This document shows, in pieces, positions 10,018 through 59,917 of a stretch of 64,000 nt of DNA. How positions within the stretch are numbered: the stretch's first letter is position 1; each line of letters begins with the position of its first letter. Under the pieces are notes generated by a model. The model did not search any database, was not told where the DNA came from, and saw only the letters and a program-made list of their open reading frames with translations. Origin of the DNA: an uncultured Algibacter sp. (lineage in GTDB: Bacteria; Bacteroidota; Bacteroidia; Flavobacteriales; Flavobacteriaceae); NCBI GenBank assembly GCA_947502405.1, contig CANMZT010000014.1, positions 7,309-71,308 of the forward strand, in the 5' to 3' direction. The position numbers were made by a program, and so were the translations under genes.

Positions 10018-12201
10018 TTAAAACTTGAGTGTAGCTCCTACTAAAAAGTTAGTAGTGGCTTGTGGATAATATCCAGCAAAATAGCCTGTAGTAGTTCCCG
10101 TAGGGCTTGTATTATCATCAAAATCAAACGACCCAAAGTAACCGTTAGACACATATTTCTTATTAAAAATATTGTTTACCAATCCAGATAACACAATAGA
10201 CTTAAACAGTTTATTTGGCTTAATTTCGTAATTAATATTGAAATCGTTAACAAAATAACTTTCTAATAAAGATTCTTCATTATCAGTGTTACCCATATAT
10301 TGCTCACCCACATATTTACTTAATAATGATAGTTGCAATCGTTCCGCAGGGAAAAAATTAAGTGCATTACCGATTACTAAATCTGGAGAAAATGAAATAT
10401 TAGTATCTCCTAAGTTAACAACCTCACCATTTATTGAAGATGAAAAGTCTTTATTTTTATTACTACTTAAAGCAATATTTGTTGATGTACTAAAGTATTT
10501 ACTAAATTGAATGTTAGCATCAACTTCTAAACCTAGTCTATAACTTTTACCACTTGTAGCTCTTAATGGACTTCCCACATCATCTAACTCGCCTGTTAAC
10601 ACCAATTGATTTTGATAAAACATATAATAGATATTGGTATTAATACTGGCCTTTTCACTATTGTAACGCCATCCTAACTCAATATCATTTAAAGTTTCAT
10701 TTTCAGTTACACCGCCTTCAAAATCATCACGATTAGGTTCCCTATTAGCTCTTGCATAAGATGCATAAAAACTATTAAAATCGCAATGCTTGTATGTTAA
10801 ACCGACTTTTGGGTTGAAAAAACTAAAATCAGCATCCGTTACAAACTCATCTCTATCCGAGTTCAACCCATTCGTCTTATAACTCACAAAACGACCTTGT
10901 AAATCAATAAAACCTGTGATTTTTTCTGCTAATTTGAAAGTGGCTTTTGAAAATACACTAAAATCATTTTTTGTAGCATCTCCATCGTAGTAACGGTCTC
11001 TGATTTCAGTATTAGCAGTCAAGTCACTTCCCCAAATAACCTCTCCAAAATGGTCTCCCGTATAAGAACTCCATGAAATTCCAGAAATAATTTCCAACGC
11101 ATTTTCTTTATAAGTTACATTTGCATTTAAGACATAAAAATCATTATCTAACCACCTACGAACAATAACATCCGAATTATATTCAATCAAATTATTAAAA
11201 TCCTCTGCTGATTCTTCTGGCTTGTATTGCTCAAAATACCCTTTACCTTTTGTGTAGTTTAATCCTAAGTTGGTAGACCAATTATTATCAAAACGCTCGT
11301 TCCAATGTAATTGATAGTGGTCTTGCCAATAATTATCGGTTTCATTTTCATAAGTGTACGGGTTTTGACGACGATCCTCTTTTAGTTGTTCTGCCGTTAA
11401 ACCAAACCAAGATTGATAGGTTTGTTCTGTATTACCAAAAGTTAAAGCTTTAATTAAGGTGTTATCATCTTTATAAACACCTTGTATGAAATACGACTTT
11501 AAATCTGTAAACGCTCTATCTACATAGCCATCAGAATAAATATTAGAGAAACGACCAGAGATTTCGAAATGATCATTTAATAATCCTGTACTAACTTTTA
11601 CAGTATGTTTACGAGTGTTAAAACTACCAAAACTATTAGCAATTTCTGCTGAAGCTTCCTTAGAAAATGCATCTGTTAATAAATTGATACTAGCACCAAA
11701 AGCACCTGAACCATTTGTAGATGTACCAACACCACGCTGTAATTGTAAACTTTCAGTTGACGAGGCAAAATCCCCCAAATTCACCCAAAATGTACCTTGA
11801 CTTTCTGGATCGTTATAAGGTATACCGTTTATGGTAACATTTACTCGTGTTGCATCTGTACCACGAACTCTAATACCAGTGTAACCTACACCTGCACCAG
11901 CATCACTAGTAGTTACAACAGAAGGTAAGAAGTTTAACAAAACAGGAATATCCTGTCCTAAATTACGTTTTGCAAGTTCCTCTTTTGAAACGTTTGAATG
12001 CGTAATTGGAGAATCTGCATCCACTCTAACTGCATTTACTAAAACTTCATCTAGTTTTTCAGTTTTAGTTGAATCTTGTACTTTTTGATTTTGCTGTGCA
12101 TTAATTCCAATTGTAACAAGCAGAATTAAAGCAGCTACAAACTTTTTTTGATGAGATTCCTGCCTTCGCAGGAATGACAAATTTTTGAATAAATTTTTCA
12201 T
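10018..12201 (-). CDS. TonB-dependent receptor, probably for thiamine
   Basis: Signal peptide, plug motif (RVRG.D..R.NVTING.PYND), C-terminal GATLKF; TPP riboswitch upstream. Confidence 0.9.
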   Translation of the reverse strand: MKNLFKNLSFLRRQESHQKKFVAALILLVTIGINAQQNQKVQDSTKTEKLDEVLVNAVRVDADSPITHSNVSKEELAKRNLGQDIPVLLNFLPSVVTTSDAGAGVGYTGIRVRGTDATRVNVTINGIPYNDPESQGTFWVNLGDFASSTESLQLQRGVGTSTNGSGAFGASINLLTDAFSKEASAEIANSFGSFNTRKHTVKVSTGLLNDHFEISGRFSNIYSDGYVDRAFTDLKSYFIQGVYKDDNTLIKALTFGNTEQTYQSWFGLTAEQLKEDRRQNPYTYENETDNYWQDHYQLHWNERFDNNWSTNLGLNYTKGKGYFEQYKPEESAEDFNNLIEYNSDVIVRRWLDNDFYVLNANVTYKENALEIISGISWSSYTGDHFGEVIWGSDLTANTEIRDRYYDGDATKNDFSVFSKATFKLAEKITGFIDLQGRFVSYKTNGLNSDRDEFVTDADFSFFNPKVGLTYKHCDFNSFYASYARANREPNRDDFEGGVTENETLNDIELGWRYNSEKASINTNIYYMFYQNQLVLTGELDDVGSPLRATSGKSYRLGLEVDANIQFSKYFSTSTNIALSSNKNKDFSSSINGEVVNLGDTNISFSPDLVIGNALNFFPAERLQLSLLSKYVGEQYMGNTDNEESLLESYFVNDFNINYEIKPNKLFKSIVLSGLVNNIFNKKYVSNGYFGSFDFDDNTSPTGTTTGYFAGYYPQATTNFLVGATLKF
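12153..12179 (-). repeat. TGTC-tagged REP-like palindrome inside the receptor CDS
   Basis: TGTCATTCCTGCGAAGGCAGGAATCTC, read in frame as LSFLRRQES. Confidence 0.85.
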
Positions 12202-12340: not shown

Positions 12341-12362
12341 AAAAATGTCTACTAGACATTTT
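12341..12362 (-). terminator. Candidate terminator in the TPP riboswitch expression platform
   Basis: AAAATGTC-TAGTA-GACATTTTT on the minus strand, just downstream of the aptamer. Confidence 0.4.
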
Positions 12363-12371
12363 CTAAACGTT

Positions 12372-12442
12372 CGCTTTCCTAAACAGCATTACCTGTTCTA
12401 GGTTCAATGGGTATGATCTCAGCCGATAATAGGCACCCCTTT
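12372..12442 (-). promoter_or_regulatory. TPP (THI-box) riboswitch aptamer
   Basis: Minus strand GGGGTGCC..GGCTGAGATCATACCCATTGAACCTAGAACAGGTAATGCTGTTTAGGAAAG contains the TPP hallmarks CTGAGA, ATACCC, GAACCT and TAATGC. Confidence 0.93.
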
Positions 12443-12455
12443 TTTGAGAACGGTG

Positions 12456-12463
12456 CAAATGTA
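12456..12463 (-). promoter_or_regulatory. -7 promoter box (TACATTTG) for the riboswitch-receptor transcript
   Basis: Consensus match just upstream of the aptamer. Confidence 0.75.
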
Positions 12464-12503: not shown

Positions 12504-12911
12504 TTAATCCAAATTAGGCTTTTTTCTATTAGCCTTCTTTTCAGACAGTTTGCGTTTACTATTTAGTCGTTTTTTAACTACTGCTTTTGGAACTTTAGTT
12601 GGTTTACGCTTTTTGGGAACTTTCAAAGCTTCTTTAATCAAACCCAAAAACCTCTTAATAACTAGGTCTTTATTTTTGTGCTGACTTCTACTTTCATCAC
12701 ACTGTAAAATCAATACTCCTTCTTTTGTTAATCGATTTTGAAGTTTATCTAAAAGACGTTCCTTTTGTTCAACATTAAGTATAAGCGACTCTGATATATT
12801 AAATGACAATTCTACTTTTGAAGAGACCTTATTAACATGCTGCCCTCCACTTCCGGAGCTTCTAACAGCTTTAAAAGTTAACTCTTGTAATATGGCTTCT
12901 TCATCAAACAT
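12504..12911 (-). CDS. arfB: Alternative ribosome rescue peptidyl-tRNA hydrolase ArfB
   Basis: RSSGSGGQHVNKV (GGQ), RSQHKNK, basic tail. Confidence 0.95.
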   Translation of the reverse strand: MFDEEAILQELTFKAVRSSGSGGQHVNKVSSKVELSFNISESLILNVEQKERLLDKLQNRLTKEGVLILQCDESRSQHKNKDLVIKRFLGLIKEALKVPKKRKPTKVPKAVVKKRLNSKRKLSEKKANRKKPNLD

Positions 12912-14461
12912 TAAGATACTTGATGCACAGGTTTCAATAAGTCGTTTACTGTTTTTACAGGATTAAAAGTTTCCAAGGGTACTTCTACAAAAATAGAATT
13001 CCAGTATGCCATACTACCGTTCCACAATCCAGGAAGCTCAAGAGCTTGAATATCTACTCCATTTTGTGTTTTAGTGGTTATAAAAGCGGCTTCTGGGTCA
13101 ACAAACTTTGTTAAATCAAATTTTTCTCCTTTATAATTTTTTACGCCACAAACTAAATCTGTAGGATTAAAATGTGTGGCCTTATATACTATACCTTGCT
13201 GATTCTTTTTACCAAAATTAATTTGAGCAAATTCAACTATTTGTAATGATATTTTACCCTCATCATCTTTTACCCAAAATGGACCTCCACCAGGTTCTCC
13301 TTGGTTTTTTACCATACCACAAACTCGAATAGGTCTATCAAATTTTTCTTTTAAATAACTTATTTTTTCCTCAGAGCAAAAGGCTTCAAAATCTGCCACA
13401 ACTGGCACATTTAATCTATAACGTAAAAACAAAGCCATCACTTTAAAATCAGCATCATCTAAATAACCTTCATCGAGCTTTTTCAAATAAGTAAAAACTT
13501 TCTCTTGAGCTTCTAAAAGAACACCAGCCAATAATTTCTTATAGTTTGAAACTTCAATATTTTTATTTGCAACAACTATATTGTCTATATTTTTAATAAA
13601 AATTAAGTCGTTATCTAAATCGTTTAAATTCTCTAGTAGCGCACCATGGCCAGCTGGTCTGAATAAAATTGAACCATCTTCATTTCTAAACACCTTATCA
13701 TCAAGAGTTAAAGCAACTGTTTCGGTTGCTTCTTTTTGAAAAGAATAAGACACATTGAATTTTGTATTTGTTTGGTCTTCTATCGGCTCTACAACAGCAC
13801 TAAACTCTTTTTTAAAATAGAGATGATGTTTTTCTGAAACTGTGAAATGTAGATTTGATTTACCATTGGAAGATGCATACAAGGTAGATTCAAATAAATG
13901 CTCTTCAAAGGCTGTTTTTACTTGCGCTCCGTACTTATGAAAAGGCAATAAACCTTTTGGTAAAAAGCTATAGTTTAGCCCATCAGCATCTAGCATGGTT
14001 TTTACAAATAACATTTGCTTTTCTTCGTTAGTTAAAGCATCATAATTTGGTGTTCCTTGACGAATCACTGATTGCACTTCATTATAAAATGGAAACTGTT
14101 CTAATTTTTCAAAAAAGGTTTCAATTAGAGCTTCATTTTTTCGCTCTGCATATTTTTTAACATTCTCTTTTGAGGGATTAAAATGTTGTAAAAACTGAAA
14201 CAAAAACTTAAACATACGTGTTGCTGCTCCTGAAGCAGGAACAAACTTCACGATTGATAAATTATCCTTTTTATTGTCATAAAGATTTATCAACTCTTGA
14301 GTTTCACCTTTATCATAGCTTTCTATACCTTTTCCTATGGTAGCAGCTGCCACAAGATCAGAAAATGACATGCCGTTTTTTAATCTGGACACTTGTGCGT
14401 TAACCTGATCTGGAGTTATTCCTTTACTTTTTATTTGCTTAATATCTTTCTCTGTAAACAT
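12911..14461 (-). CDS. DUF4301 family protein (nucleotidyltransferase-like)
   Basis: KFVPASGAATRMFK, RPAGHGAL, KNIDN, GEPGGGPFW, THFNP.DLVC, LELPGLWNGSM, FNPVKTVNDLL. Confidence 0.85.
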   Translation of the reverse strand: MFTEKDIKQIKSKGITPDQVNAQVSRLKNGMSFSDLVAAATIGKGIESYDKGETQELINLYDNKKDNLSIVKFVPASGAATRMFKFLFQFLQHFNPSKENVKKYAERKNEALIETFFEKLEQFPFYNEVQSVIRQGTPNYDALTNEEKQMLFVKTMLDADGLNYSFLPKGLLPFHKYGAQVKTAFEEHLFESTLYASSNGKSNLHFTVSEKHHLYFKKEFSAVVEPIEDQTNTKFNVSYSFQKEATETVALTLDDKVFRNEDGSILFRPAGHGALLENLNDLDNDLIFIKNIDNIVVANKNIEVSNYKKLLAGVLLEAQEKVFTYLKKLDEGYLDDADFKVMALFLRYRLNVPVVADFEAFCSEEKISYLKEKFDRPIRVCGMVKNQGEPGGGPFWVKDDEGKISLQIVEFAQINFGKKNQQGIVYKATHFNPTDLVCGVKNYKGEKFDLTKFVDPEAAFITTKTQNGVDIQALELPGLWNGSMAYWNSIFVEVPLETFNPVKTVNDLLKPVHQVS

Positions 14462-14462
14462 C

Positions 14463-15032
14463 TTATTCTTTGGGGTTTAATAATTTGTCAATATGTTTTA
14501 CTGCTGTTTCTAAACGCGTTTTCTTATCACCTTTTAAAAGCACAAAAGGTTTTTTATATTTTAATAATGCTTCTTGGAAAGCATCAAACATTTCTTTTCT
14601 ATGCTCAGGTTTATCTCTTAAATCATCTGCTTCCCAAGGCGTATCAATATAGGTTAAAAAATACAAATCGTAAGAATTCTCTAAAGCATGCTTCTCTAGT
14701 GTTGGGTCGCAACTTCCTAAGTAATAAGCTTCAGAATAAACCTTGGTTTCTAACAAATCCGTATCACAAATCAGCACTGAATCGGTTTTTTGAGCCAATT
14801 CATTTTCCAATTTCATTTGTCCTTCTGCTATAGGTAATAAATCTTCTGGCTCACAGGTTTTTCGCTCATTATTCCATTTGTTTTGAAGATATTCACGAGC
14901 ATATTCTGGTACCCAAACAGAGTTATAATACCTAGCCAATTGTCTTGACAAAGTAGTTTTTCCTGTAGATTCGGGACCAAACAAAACCACTTTTATGCAG
15001 TTTGCAGGTTGTTGTTTATATTTTTCTTCCAT
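14463..15032 (-). CDS. Stand-alone NadR-type P-loop kinase (AAA_28)
   Basis: GPESTGKTTL Walker A, VPEYAREYL, CDTD, PWEADDLRD. Confidence 0.88.
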   Translation of the reverse strand: MEEKYKQQPANCIKVVLFGPESTGKTTLSRQLARYYNSVWVPEYAREYLQNKWNNERKTCEPEDLLPIAEGQMKLENELAQKTDSVLICDTDLLETKVYSEAYYLGSCDPTLEKHALENSYDLYFLTYIDTPWEADDLRDKPEHRKEMFDAFQEALLKYKKPFVLLKGDKKTRLETAVKHIDKLLNPKE

Positions 15033-15625
15033 GCTATGTAGCCAAAAATGGCAATAAAAGTGAATCCTAAATATTGTAAACTCGTAAACGTAAAACCTTT
15101 ATAAAAGTATAACGGCACGGAAATAATGTCTCCAATAATCCAAAAAATCCAATTTTCGAGTTTACGTCTTGCCATAAGCCACATACCAACAAAAAATATT
15201 GCTGTAGTTATGGTATCTATATAGGCTACCCAACTCGTCCATTTATCAAAACTTTGGTAAACTAAATAAACAAATAAGAGTGTTGCTAAAAATATAGCTA
15301 TACTTATCTTTTTTTCGTTGAATGTTGTTTTGGATATTGGGGTAACATGCTCATCATCAATTTTCTTCGTCCAAATGTACCAACCATAAACACTCATCAC
15401 AAAGTAGTATGCGTTTATCATCATATCTCCCAACAACTCCCACTTAAGCAGTAAATACACAAAAATAACGGTACTTATCATACCCGTTGGAAACACAAAA
15501 ACATTGTTCTGCTTAGAGAACCAAACCGATAAAAATCCAAAAAAAACAGCAACTATTTCTAAAACAATATCAATCGTTTCATATTCTGAATATTGCCCAA
15601 AGAAAAACTCAAAAATGAGGTTCAT
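14993..15625 (-). CDS. pnuC: PnuC/PnuT family vitamin transporter (nicotinamide riboside or thiamine)
   Basis: Seven-TM pattern; FPTG, YGWYIW, D..TT, WLMARRKLENWIFWI..D. Confidence 0.92.
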   Translation of the reverse strand: MNLIFEFFFGQYSEYETIDIVLEIVAVFFGFLSVWFSKQNNVFVFPTGMISTVIFVYLLLKWELLGDMMINAYYFVMSVYGWYIWTKKIDDEHVTPISKTTFNEKKISIAIFLATLLFVYLVYQSFDKWTSWVAYIDTITTAIFFVGMWLMARRKLENWIFWIIGDIISVPLYFYKGFTFTSLQYLGFTFIAIFGYIAWKKNINNNLQTA

Positions 15626-15869
15626 AATCGTATCTGTCTGATTTTACAATTTTCATGTAGAGTAAACCGCGTTCAATAAGCTCGAAAGCTTCTTTTATTT
15701 CAGATGTTAATACTTGCATAACCTCATCATAATCACCATAAACTTGTGTGCTTAATGGGTTTTCAAGCACTTTTAATTTAGATGCTCTTAACTTTTTAAT
15801 GAAATGAATAATAGCTGGTTCAAAATCATCTTGCAATGGTGTTAGTGTTAATTCTACTGATATTTTCAT
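15609..15869 (-). CDS. Thiamine-binding protein family (YkoF/MTH1187-like)
   Basis: SVELTLTPL...NPLSTQVYGDYDEVM ferredoxin-like pattern. Confidence 0.75.
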   Translation of the reverse strand: MKISVELTLTPLQDDFEPAIIHFIKKLRASKLKVLENPLSTQVYGDYDEVMQVLTSEIKEAFELIERGLLYMKIVKSDRYDYEPHF

Positions 15870-15952: not shown

Positions 15953-16678
15953 TTACTTTAGTAATTCATCAAAAAACGATTCATCTTCTTCAAAGGCGGT
16001 ACCTATAACTACAATATCTGCTCCTGCTTCAAAAGCATTTTCAATCTGCAATTTAGTCCTTAAACCACCTCCTATAATTAACGGAATCTGTAACTCATTT
16101 TTTACAGCTTTAATAATTTCTTTAGTTAAACCGTATTTTGCACCGCTTCCTGCTTCCAAATATATTAGCTTCATACCTAAAAGCTGTCCTGCTTTGGCAG
16201 TATCTAATATGTGTTGGACATTATTTCTTGATATAGGTTTTGTTTCAGTAACTTGTTCTACTGCTGAAATTTTACCACTTTCAATTAAAATATATCCTGT
16301 TGGGATTACCTCTAAAGACGAATCCTTTAACTTGGAAACTGCTCTTACATGCTTACCAATTAAATACTCAGGATTTCTACCAGAAAGCAAAGACAAAAAT
16401 AACAATCCATCTGCCTTATTCGTAATTTGAGTAACATCTCCAGGAAATAAAATTACTGGTAACTTAGTATGCTTTTTAATCTCAGAAACCAAATCTTCTG
16501 TTAAACCTTCATTCACAGAGCTCCCGCCAACAAATATATGTGTTGCGATAGATTTGTTTACTTTATTAATAAAATACAATGCTTTATCAACAGAAAACTT
16601 ATCGGGGTCAATTAAAATGGCAAGTAATTTTTCGCCTTTACTGATACTATCTTGTATGTTATTATAAATAGCATCCAT
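15953..16678 (-). CDS. Geranylgeranylglyceryl/heptaprenylglyceryl phosphate synthase (PcrB/GGGPS family)
   Basis: LIDPDK, FVGGS, LFPG, LSGRNPEYLIG, YLEAGSGA, GGGLR; ATG 16678 overlaps the upstream stop (TAATG). Confidence 0.92.
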   Translation of the reverse strand: MDAIYNNIQDSISKGEKLLAILIDPDKFSVDKALYFINKVNKSIATHIFVGGSSVNEGLTEDLVSEIKKHTKLPVILFPGDVTQITNKADGLLFLSLLSGRNPEYLIGKHVRAVSKLKDSSLEVIPTGYILIESGKISAVEQVTETKPISRNNVQHILDTAKAGQLLGMKLIYLEAGSGAKYGLTKEIIKAVKNELQIPLIIGGGLRTKLQIENAFEAGADIVVIGTAFEEDESFFDELLK

Positions 16679-17304
16679 TAGGCTATGGCATAAGCACATG
16701 TAAATCCTTCAAACTCTAAAAAATGAATACTATAACGGTATTTTTTACCTTCATAATCAATCCATGCAATAGTATCATTATCAATAATTGAAAATGGAAT
16801 TACTAAACAGTGCTGTTTAAAACTCAATCCTGGTGTAGCAAAAAGTTTATATAATGATTCTTTTACACACCAAATAGTTGTTAGTTTTTTAACATAGTCA
16901 GAATCCCCTACCTCTAAGTAATCAAACTCATAATCAATAAACTTATGTGCTATCACAGAAATTTTTTCACGCTGCTTTTCTATATCTATACCAACTACTA
17001 AATCACTAACAATAACTGCCGAAAAATTAAATGAATGCGTAATAGAAATTTGCTTGCCATCTTTTAAATGGGGTTTACCGTTTTCATCATAAAACAAATC
17101 AGAATCAGTATACCCAAACTCGTGCAATAAATGACGAACACTTAAAAAACCACGCTGATGTAATTCACTTTTCATGCCCAAAACCCGATTTAAAGCAATA
17201 GGTTTTAAATTAACCTTTGCCATTAAATCCTCGTAAGATTCTGTAATCTTCCAAATTTTAACAGTAGTTTGTGAATTTGGTGTAATGGTTTTATAAAGTG
17301 GCAT
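16678..17304 (-). CDS. 4'-phosphopantetheinyl transferase family protein
   Basis: GKP.L....ISITHS, VGIDIE, WCVKESLYK. Confidence 0.9.
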   Translation of the reverse strand: MPLYKTITPNSQTTVKIWKITESYEDLMAKVNLKPIALNRVLGMKSELHQRGFLSVRHLLHEFGYTDSDLFYDENGKPHLKDGKQISITHSFNFSAVIVSDLVVGIDIEKQREKISVIAHKFIDYEFDYLEVGDSDYVKKLTTIWCVKESLYKLFATPGLSFKQHCLVIPFSIIDNDTIAWIDYEGKKYRYSIHFLEFEGFTCAYAIA

Positions 17305-30328: not shown

Positions 30329-30411
30329 GGGCGTTACCCACAAGGGGTCGGGCTTTCCGTTATATCTTTTTCTCGTGCCTCAAAAAAGGATGCCACTTCA
30401 ATCCCTAACGC
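30329..30411 (-). repeat. Structured repeat, copy C (Flavo-1-like)
   Basis: Minus strand GCGTTAGGGATTGAAGTGGCATCCTTTTTTGAGGCACGAGAAAAAGATATAACGGAAAGCCCGACCCCTTGTGGGTAACGCCC. Confidence 0.8.
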
Positions 30412-30496
30412 GGGCTCATCAGCTAGCCATTTGACTAAACAAAACAATATCATTTTTTTACAAACGTTAAGTCTATAAGAATTAAAACAATTCCTA

Positions 30497-58613: not shown

Positions 58614-58874
58614 ATGAAAAGCATTCATTGTATGGTGTTTGGGCACAATTTTAAAGTTACCAGACAAGTTACTTATCATGTTCAAGAATACACTTGTAAA
58701 AACTGTAAAAAAGAACTCACTACAAACAGTAACGGAAACTTAATAGAACTTACACCAAAATTTAAAGAGATTAATGACGTTCTTGAGCGAATTCATCACA
58801 AACGTTTAGTAAGAATGAACAAGAGAAAAAAGCTCAGCAGAACTCAACCAAAACCTAAGTTAATGATTGCTTAG
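58614..58874 (+). CDS. Small zinc-finger-like protein (DUF1660-like), paralogue 2
   Basis: CMVFGH...YTCKNC; long blocks identical to paralogue 1. Confidence 0.7.
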   Translation: MKSIHCMVFGHNFKVTRQVTYHVQEYTCKNCKKELTTNSNGNLIELTPKFKEINDVLERIHHKRLVRMNKRKKLSRTQPKPKLMIA

Positions 58875-59917
58875 TCATTAAAATTCTTCCAACCTTGAGC
58901 TTTGATGGGTATTCTCGTATCTGCTCTAGTCACAAGATGTAATCCTTCTTTTTCTTCCTTTATATAACCAATAACTGAAAGGTTAGGATTTGCTTTTATT
59001 TTTGGAAAATCATCTTGAGAAACTGTAAATAAAAGTTCGTAATCTTCACCTCCATTTAAAGCCACTGTAGTACTATCAATTTTAAATTCTTCACAGGTAG
59101 AAATAACTTGTGGGTCTAATGGAATTTTATTTTCGTACAAATCACAACCTACCTTACTCTGCTTACATAGATGTATTATTTCTGAAGATAAGCCATCACT
59201 AACATCAATCATGGACGTGGGTTTAACTTCTAAATCTGTTAATAATTTAACAATATCCTTTCTCGCTTCAGGTTTAAGCTGTCTTTCAACAATATAAGTA
59301 TAAGGTTCTAAATCTGGTTGACTATTAGGATTTACTTTATAAACCTCTTTTTCACGCTCTAAAACTTGCAAACCCATGTAAGCCGCTCCTAAATCTCCAG
59401 ATACTACTAATAAATCATTAGGTTTTGCACCACTTCTATATACTTCATTTTCAGGTTTCACCTCTCCAATAGCAGTGACAGAAATAAGCAATCCTTTATT
59501 TGAAGATGTGGTATCGCCTCCAACCACATCAATAGCATAAATACTTGCAGCCGTTTCAATTCCAGCATATAAATCTTCTAAAGCTTCCAAAGGAAATCTA
59601 TTAGATACTGCAATTGAAACTGTTACCTGTGTTGCTTTAGCATTCATCGCATAAACATCAGATAAATTTACAACTATCGCTTTATAGCCCAAATGCTTTA
59701 AAGGCATATAACTTAAATCAAAATGCACACCTTCAACTAATAAATCAGTAGACACAACAATGCGTTTATCTTCAAAATTTAAAACTGCAGCGTCATCACC
59801 AATCCCTTTAATTGTTGATTTTTGCTTTATTTCAAAATTTTTTGTCAAATGTTCTATTAATCCAAATTCACCTAAATCACTTAACTGTGTACTTTGCTGG
59901 TTTTTATCTTCTATCAT
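58871..59917 (-). CDS. thiL: Thiamine-monophosphate kinase
   Basis: GEFGLI, GIGDDAAV, DLLVEGVHF, NLSDVYAM, IDVSDGL, GGEDYELLFT. Confidence 0.97.
   Translation of the reverse strand: MIEDKNQQSTQLSDLGEFGLIEHLTKNFEIKQKSTIKGIGDDAAVLNFEDKRIVVSTDLLVEGVHFDLSYMPLKHLGYKAIVVNLSDVYAMNAKATQVTVSIAVSNRFPLEALEDLYAGIETAASIYAIDVVGGDTTSSNKGLLISVTAIGEVKPENEVYRSGAKPNDLLVVSGDLGAAYMGLQVLEREKEVYKVNPNSQPDLEPYTYIVERQLKPEARKDIVKLLTDLEVKPTSMIDVSDGLSSEIIHLCKQSKVGCDLYENKIPLDPQVISTCEEFKIDSTTVALNGGEDYELLFTVSQDDFPKIKANPNLSVIGYIKEEKEGLHLVTRADTRIPIKAQGWKNFND

Follow-up and report, generated by a model that had tools for sequence, protein, structure and literature searches.

The question raised by this locus is what a stand-alone NadR-type kinase phosphorylates when its gene lies between that of a vitamin channel and a TPP riboswitch preceding an outer-membrane receptor. 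The window, by which is meant the whole stretch of 64,000 nucleotides that was analysed, comes from an Algibacter-like marine member of the Flavobacteriaceae whose genome is 99.98% complete. Homologs of the kinase carry the database name nicotinamide riboside (NR) kinase, and the initial annotation had suggested that the protein converts thiamine to thiamine monophosphate (TMP). The analysis described here indicates that the window protein is quite likely an ATP-dependent thiamine kinase, a third, P-loop type analogous to ThiK. The assignment of thiamine as the probable substrate rests on genome comparison, that is, on gene content, distribution and linkage. The features discussed are collected in Table 1.

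Table 1. Features of the window discussed in the text, with positions counted from its first nucleotide.
Feature	Position	Strand	Evidence or remark
Stand-alone NadR-RNK-type P-loop kinase, putative thiamine kinase	14463..15032	-	189 aa, AAA_28
Pnu-family inner-membrane vitamin channel, probably PnuT	14993..15625	-	PF04973, 182 bits
Small thiamine-binding-family protein, YkoF-like	15609..15869	-	PF01910, 31.2 bits (cut-off 24.9)
DUF4301 protein, UDP-sugar-pyrophosphorylase fold	12911..14461	-	PF14134, 705 bits
ArfB-like peptidyl-tRNA hydrolase, RF-1 domain	12504..12911	-	PF00472
Putative Bacteroidota-type -7 promoter box	12456..12463	-	TACATTTG, read from the sequence, directly before the riboswitch
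TPP riboswitch aptamer	12359..12450	-	RF00059, 37 bits, E 1.8e-5
TonB-dependent outer-membrane receptor, OMthi type, under the riboswitch	10018..12201	-	PF00593, PF07715
ThiL, thiamine-monophosphate kinase (TMP to TPP), unlinked second step	58871..59917	-	TIGR01379, 316 bits, over cut-off
Palindromic repeat, 26 nt	12152..12177	-	about 30 genome copies
GGGP synthase-family and phosphopantetheinyl transferase genes	15953..17304	-	upstream of the gene string
Flavo-1 RNA	30342..30420	-	51.9 bits, above Rfam cut-off

The protein had been described as containing only the P-loop kinase domain of NadR, and the profile comparisons bear this out. The Pfam AAA_28 match (149 bits) spans residues 14-173, and the NadR models align with the kinase only at positions 162-320 of TIGR01526 and 233-409 of the NadR model; in TIGR01526 and NF005988 the C-terminal part alone is matched, far below the cut-off. 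The protein is a ribosylnicotinamide kinase domain without the HTH and NMNAT domains. Comparison with the NadR models showed that the N-terminal NMN adenylyltransferase domain of NadR is absent from it, and no NadR-type NMNAT-like match was found in the host genome. The predicted structure (pLDDT 96) most resembles those of NadR proteins (8x7f, TMq 0.86), which are also the closest solved sequences. The nearest relatives, with 92-93% identity, belong to Algibacter species.

The Walker A, ExxR, DT and lid motifs of the P-loop RNK domain are all present. Among 36 stand-alone homologs, G19, P20, E21, K25, E43, D90, T91, D130, R139 and R145 are invariant, and R46 and the lid residues W133, D136 and R139 are likewise conserved. 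The conservation of Walker A, E43/R46, D90 T91 and the lid indicates that the protein is an intact kinase and not a relic. The stand-alone forms differ modestly, at few sites, from the NadR domains. The Gly of the WxxDGxR lid is found in 10/10 NadR domains and is replaced by D in the window kinase and by P, D or E in stand-alone forms, in which the residue after the lid Arg is acidic (51/51) and Lys97 is frequent (41/51). Since NR and thiamine are both cations, these differences are not diagnostic of the substrate. The aromatic residues that we take to be the NAD and NR contacts of H. influenzae NadR are not conserved even among Bacteroidota NadR proteins.

No fusion of the kinase to ThiL or to a thiamine-binding domain was found among the 120 best longer homologs. 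Two proteins of 387-396 aa combine Pnu and kinase and are either genuine fusions or the result of genes being joined over the 40-nt overlap described below. One locus (L141, 7163-8608) encodes a kinase with an attached aldose 1-epimerase domain, its gene lying between pnu and a TPP riboswitch with its receptor. A second AAA_28 gene (L082, 6613-7152, on G000:C6), encoding 179 aa between a small ORF and a recQ-like gene, was considered as a salvage kinase and rejected; the product gave no BLAST match to the window kinase and sits on a long branch, far from NadR-type kinases.

The host genome was then considered as a whole. ThiE, ThiC, ThiD, ThiG, ThiH and ThiM were not found in it, and without these synthesis genes thiamine import is required. 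The initial annotation had seen neither a thiamine kinase nor a pyrophosphokinase beside the receptor, and had regarded a thiamine pyrophosphokinase elsewhere as an argument against its proposal. A search of the whole host genome for thiN, tnr3 and thiK found none, and the observation therefore holds genome-wide: there was no match to thiamine pyrophosphokinase (TPK; ThiN/Tnr3, PF04263 catalytic domain), or to ThiK (TIGR02721) at E 0.1. A ThiB/ThiP transporter was not detected in single-sequence searches of the host genome, which were also used for PncC and NadD and are less sensitive than family searches. What the host retains is ThiL, one Pnu channel and, together with its receptor, one TPP riboswitch. 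The conversion of thiamine to TMP is a pathway hole in this genome, and since TPK is absent and there is no de novo synthesis, a thiamine kinase is needed. The sole candidate at hand for the trapping step is the kinase whose start is overlapped by 40 nt by pnu. ThiL had been cited in support of the proposal; its identification stands, but it carries little weight because 216/221 Bacteroidia genomes encode it, and its presence in the window, or its co-occurrence with the kinase, is uninformative. On the NAD side, the host genome encodes NadA, NadC, PncC and NadD and lacks a detected NAPRTase. NR salvage is therefore possible but not needed, and NMN made from NR could be used through PncC and NadD.

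The kinase gene is part of an overlapping string in the order thiamine-binding-family gene, pnu, kinase, DUF4301, arfB, promoter-like box, TPP riboswitch and TonB receptor. The two neighbours on which the initial proposal relied, the thiamine-binding-family gene and pnuC, were both confirmed, and this pnu is the only copy in the host genome. Among 66 fully covered relatives, pnu was retained in 65, DUF4301 in 66, the riboswitch in 65 and the receptor in 65. The PF01910 gene was kept in 51/66, and it adjoins the kinase in three other families. The ArfB-like gene (64/66) is a conserved bystander. Genes of the GGGP synthase family are also found near pnu-kinase pairs in several other families (L159, L161, L172, L173, L186).

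The riboswitch was missed at the Rfam gathering threshold (54.3 bits) and detected in E-value mode; its score is below the cut-off, yet it is the only match in the genome and is kept at this place in 65/66 relatives. It lies before the TonB-dependent receptor, as in OMthi modules, and close homologs of the receptor follow the kinase and a riboswitch in other families. The box directly before it fits the sequence TAnnTTTG, which we take to be the Bacteroidota consensus, and is predicted to act as a promoter; a sigma-70 promoter scan and a search with the full Bacteroidota promoter pattern gave nothing above chance. As the riboswitch is located downstream of the kinase and has this promoter-like box of its own, the kinase is outside riboswitch control, a point against the thiamine reading. 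The receptor ORF contains the palindromic repeat in frame at its start, which means that translation either begins farther downstream or runs through the repeat as part of the signal peptide.

A route for thiamine through these components can be proposed. The TonB receptor, controlled by the riboswitch, would carry thiamine across the outer membrane, and the Pnu channel would let it pass the inner membrane by facilitated diffusion. The kinase would then move the gamma-phosphate of ATP to the hydroxyethyl OH of thiamine, giving TMP, and E43 may act as the catalytic base, by analogy to deoxynucleoside kinases. TMP would be trapped, being unable to exit through the channel, and ThiL would complete the conversion to TPP, so that the kinase and ThiL together would replace TPK. 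PnuT operates by facilitated diffusion and binds neither TMP nor TPP; a trapping kinase is believed to be required (PMC5749112). The kinase would take the place of ThiK without being homologous to it and would descend from the NR kinase domain of NadR; NR and thiamine are both cationic with a primary alcohol, and a side activity on NR would be allowed.

Linkage was evaluated in other families, using 77 genomes that carry the kinase. In 27/77 of them, from 10 families, the kinase is followed on its own strand by a TPP riboswitch no more than 1 kb away; within 10 kb there is one in 33/77, from 15 families. By chance, the closer arrangement would be expected at a rate of about 1.6e-4 per genome. 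At least eight genomes encode Pnu elsewhere and still have the kinase at the riboswitch, which argues that pnu alone does not account for the link. In one of these (G239) the row reads thiamine-binding gene, kinase and receptor. The row of Persicobacter psychrovividus consists of pnu, kinase and receptor, and in two genomes (G228, G307) a ThiE-family gene follows the receptor. Two further genomes, G323 and G325, contain a module of receptor, pnuC and full NadR together with a separate module of pnu and stand-alone kinase. The NadR module of G323 carries a nudC-like gene, and the stand-alone module of G325 is followed by a riboswitch. This coexistence of separate NadR and stand-alone kinase modules is an internal control.

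The type of the channel was assessed with a tree of 61 Pnu proteins. The window protein and the PnuT encoded in a riboswitch-receptor-TPK operon share a clade (SH-aLRT 98) that holds 0/9 NadR-linked PnuC proteins; PnuT proteins in this tree were typed by their TPK operon, none being characterised. These relationships suggest that the window Pnu is probably PnuT, a thiamine channel. The WxxWxxxD/N motif, considered as a discriminator between NR and thiamine channels, was rejected, as it is common to both types and gave no separation here.

To determine the distribution of the kinase, 221 Bacteroidia genomes with a completeness of 95% or more were surveyed. The kinase was present in 124/221, these matches including at least a few full NadR proteins, such as that of G294, and TPK in 42/221. 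Both occurred in only 4/221 genomes, all of one genus, versus about 24 expected; since related genomes are not independent, Fisher values on this distribution overstate the significance. ThiE is missing from 148 genomes; of these, 106 encode the kinase alone, 36 TPK alone, 1 both and 5 neither, so that one or the other is present in 143/148; two of the five lacking both are genomes of 0.5 and 1.3 Mb. Where ThiE is present (n=73), 54 genomes have neither kinase nor TPK, and 53 of these 54 are also without Pnu. The counts include two unpublished genomes, one with the kinase only and one with ThiE only, without which 106 becomes 105 and 54 becomes 53. The replacement also recurs within families: TPK stands in place of the kinase in single members of three families, and genomes with ThiE and no kinase occur beside genomes with the kinase and no ThiE in six families, in one of them (f68) even within a genus. 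ThiL accompanies the kinase in 123/124 genomes. NadC was found in 218/221, and NAD need therefore does not explain the distribution of the kinase. The ThiK search covered the host genome.

Taken together, the distribution relative to TPK and ThiE, the riboswitch linkage in many families and the affinity of the channel to PnuT point to thiamine. The thiamine-to-TMP activity initially suggested is supported by all three, with the specificity deduced from the genomic pattern.

Some genomes depart from this pattern. In one Flavobacteriaceae genus, all 7/7 sampled genomes encode an intact kinase fused to DUF4301 together with TPK, and the kinase may be kept there through redundancy or for a second job. 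Two genomes of another class (G012, G037) have no ThiE and no TPK, and encode only a full NadR next to pnuC (L142, L138); either NadR itself handles thiamine there or another route is used. In G186 and G219, which have Pnu and ThiL, no ThiE, TPK or kinase was matched, and a profile search found no kinase beside pnu (L177, L178); yet another enzyme may operate, or the genomes may be incomplete.

The possibility was considered that the protein is an ordinary NR kinase working with PnuC, in which case NMN would reach NAD either by way of PncC, NadD and NadE or with DUF4301 serving as a new NMN adenylyltransferase, and thiamine activation would fall to a different enzyme. By sequence and by fold alike, no characterised family is closer than NadR, the database name agrees, and the host has PncC and NadD and no detected NAPRTase. 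The genus that holds the kinase alongside TPK also fits an NR kinase. However, this explanation leaves the near-exclusion of TPK, the absence from most genomes with ThiE and the riboswitch linkage in 10 families unaccounted for, and it would leave 106/148 ThiE-less genomes without a detected means of phosphorylating thiamine. NadC is nearly universal, and full NadR modules coexist as a separate set.

The DUF4301 protein bears on the same point. Its gene starts 1 nt after the kinase stop, and its predicted structure (pLDDT 95.5) matches eukaryote-type UGPase/UAP, the UDP-glucose and UDP-GlcNAc pyrophosphorylases (E 5e-12). This nucleotidyltransferase-like fold and the many fusions with the kinase keep alive the idea of a split NadR, composed of a kinase and a nucleotidyltransferase. 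However, adjacency or fusion is restricted to the Flavobacteriaceae; no DUF4301 gene was found beside the kinase in the loci read outside that family. In Bacteroides finegoldii and Parabacteroides distasonis, DUF4301 is next to and divergent from relA/spoT, with no kinase or pnu alongside, and six distant homologs, mostly on short contigs, had no named kinase or pnu neighbour. The family comprises 1149 clusters at E 1e-30 and is mostly stand-alone, with 3/150 best clusters of fusion length. DUF4301 is probably not needed for the thiamine step and is treated as a lineage-specific passenger or partner. On this evidence, an ordinary NR kinase is considered unlikely.

A second alternative is that the kinase does serve thiamine salvage but at another step, either phosphorylating thiamine twice to give TPP or acting on an analogue or breakdown product imported by the same system. 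The link to thiamine is genomic, the fold is common to NMP kinases such as thymidylate kinase, and the kinase swaps with TPK, which makes TPP directly. Double phosphorylation is hard to reconcile with the retention of ThiL in nearly all kinase genomes and with the behaviour of NadR-type domains, which phosphorylate a free primary alcohol once. Furthermore, phosphorylated precursors could not be joined in the host, which has no ThiD, ThiM or ThiE. A different salvage step is therefore judged quite improbable. Last, the Flavobacteriaceae kinase might form a two-step pathway with DUF4301 that phosphorylates and then nucleotidylates an unknown imported compound, whatever other homologs do, as the separate clade of these kinases, the adjacency of DUF4301 in 66/66 relatives with its many fusions and the persistence of the kinase beside TPK would allow, but this is very improbable, as the host and two other genomes (G088, G112) would have no thiamine-activating enzyme, riboswitch and receptor are linked in 65/66 relatives and DUF4301 is mostly stand-alone.

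The phylogeny weighs against the thiamine kinase assignment. The Flavobacteriaceae kinases form their own clade (SH-aLRT 99), and a sister relation to the 40 other stand-alone kinases was not resolved. The hypothesis that all stand-alone kinases share one origin was rejected (p-AU 0.011), due largely to truncated NadR-like rows such as L190 and L139, and the tree indicates that stand-alone forms arose more than once. Given this placement and the multiple origins, the evidence from other families transfers by analogy and not by orthology.

Three known systems resemble parts of this one. The RNK domain of NadR (EC 2.7.1.22; H. influenzae 1LW7, E. coli-type 8X7F, L. lactis 6GYE; PMC7221760) has the same fold (TMq 0.77-0.86), the Walker A GxES[ST]GK, ExxR, DT and lid Arg motifs, a gene beside a Pnu channel and a trapping role. 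The window kinase differs in having no NMNAT or HTH domain, in its 23-29% identity, in the missing Gly of WxxDGxR and the acidic residue after the lid Arg, and in belonging to a stand-alone group whose distribution tracks thiamine need and not NAD need. The OMthi-PnuT-Tnr3 (TPK) system of gut Bacteroidetes (BT2390, BT2396-2397; PMC5613172) shares the TPP-riboswitch TonB receptor, the Pnu channel and a trapping kinase. In the window, however, TPK is absent and an unrelated P-loop kinase that would need ThiL is found instead, the channel and kinase are upstream of the riboswitch and outside its control, and a thiamine-binding-family protein and DUF4301 are added. ThiK (EC 2.7.1.89, E. coli ycfN, TIGR02721) is alike in the proposed reaction and in ThiL dependence, but has no sequence match to the window kinase and a different fold. 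ThiK is of the aminoglycoside/choline kinase type, whereas the window protein is a P-loop kinase. Published reconstructions use only ThiK and ThiN for the thiamine phosphorylation step (PMC6593275). No paper proposing or testing thiamine kinase activity was found in the literature searched, and an earlier prediction in subscription journals or curated databases is possible.

Many Bacteroidia, including abundant marine flavobacteria, have no B1 synthesis and neither known thiamine-activating enzyme, which raises the question of how they use imported thiamine. The same kinase is probably the missing B1-trapping enzyme in many other Bacteroidota without B1 synthesis, as the genome comparison suggests. 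More broadly, the stand-alone NadR-type kinases of Bacteroidia are likely to be a third, structurally unrelated class of thiamine-activating enzyme that arose through a change of substrate from NR to thiamine and provides the commonest B1 salvage route there (about 70% of sampled ThiE-less genomes). The kinase is one small soluble candidate that is easily assayed. If the assignment is true, many genes named nicotinamide riboside kinase and PnuC would carry the wrong annotation, metabolic models of how marine and freshwater communities exchange B1 and NAD would have to be corrected, and the NadR kinase fold would offer a clean case of substrate change.
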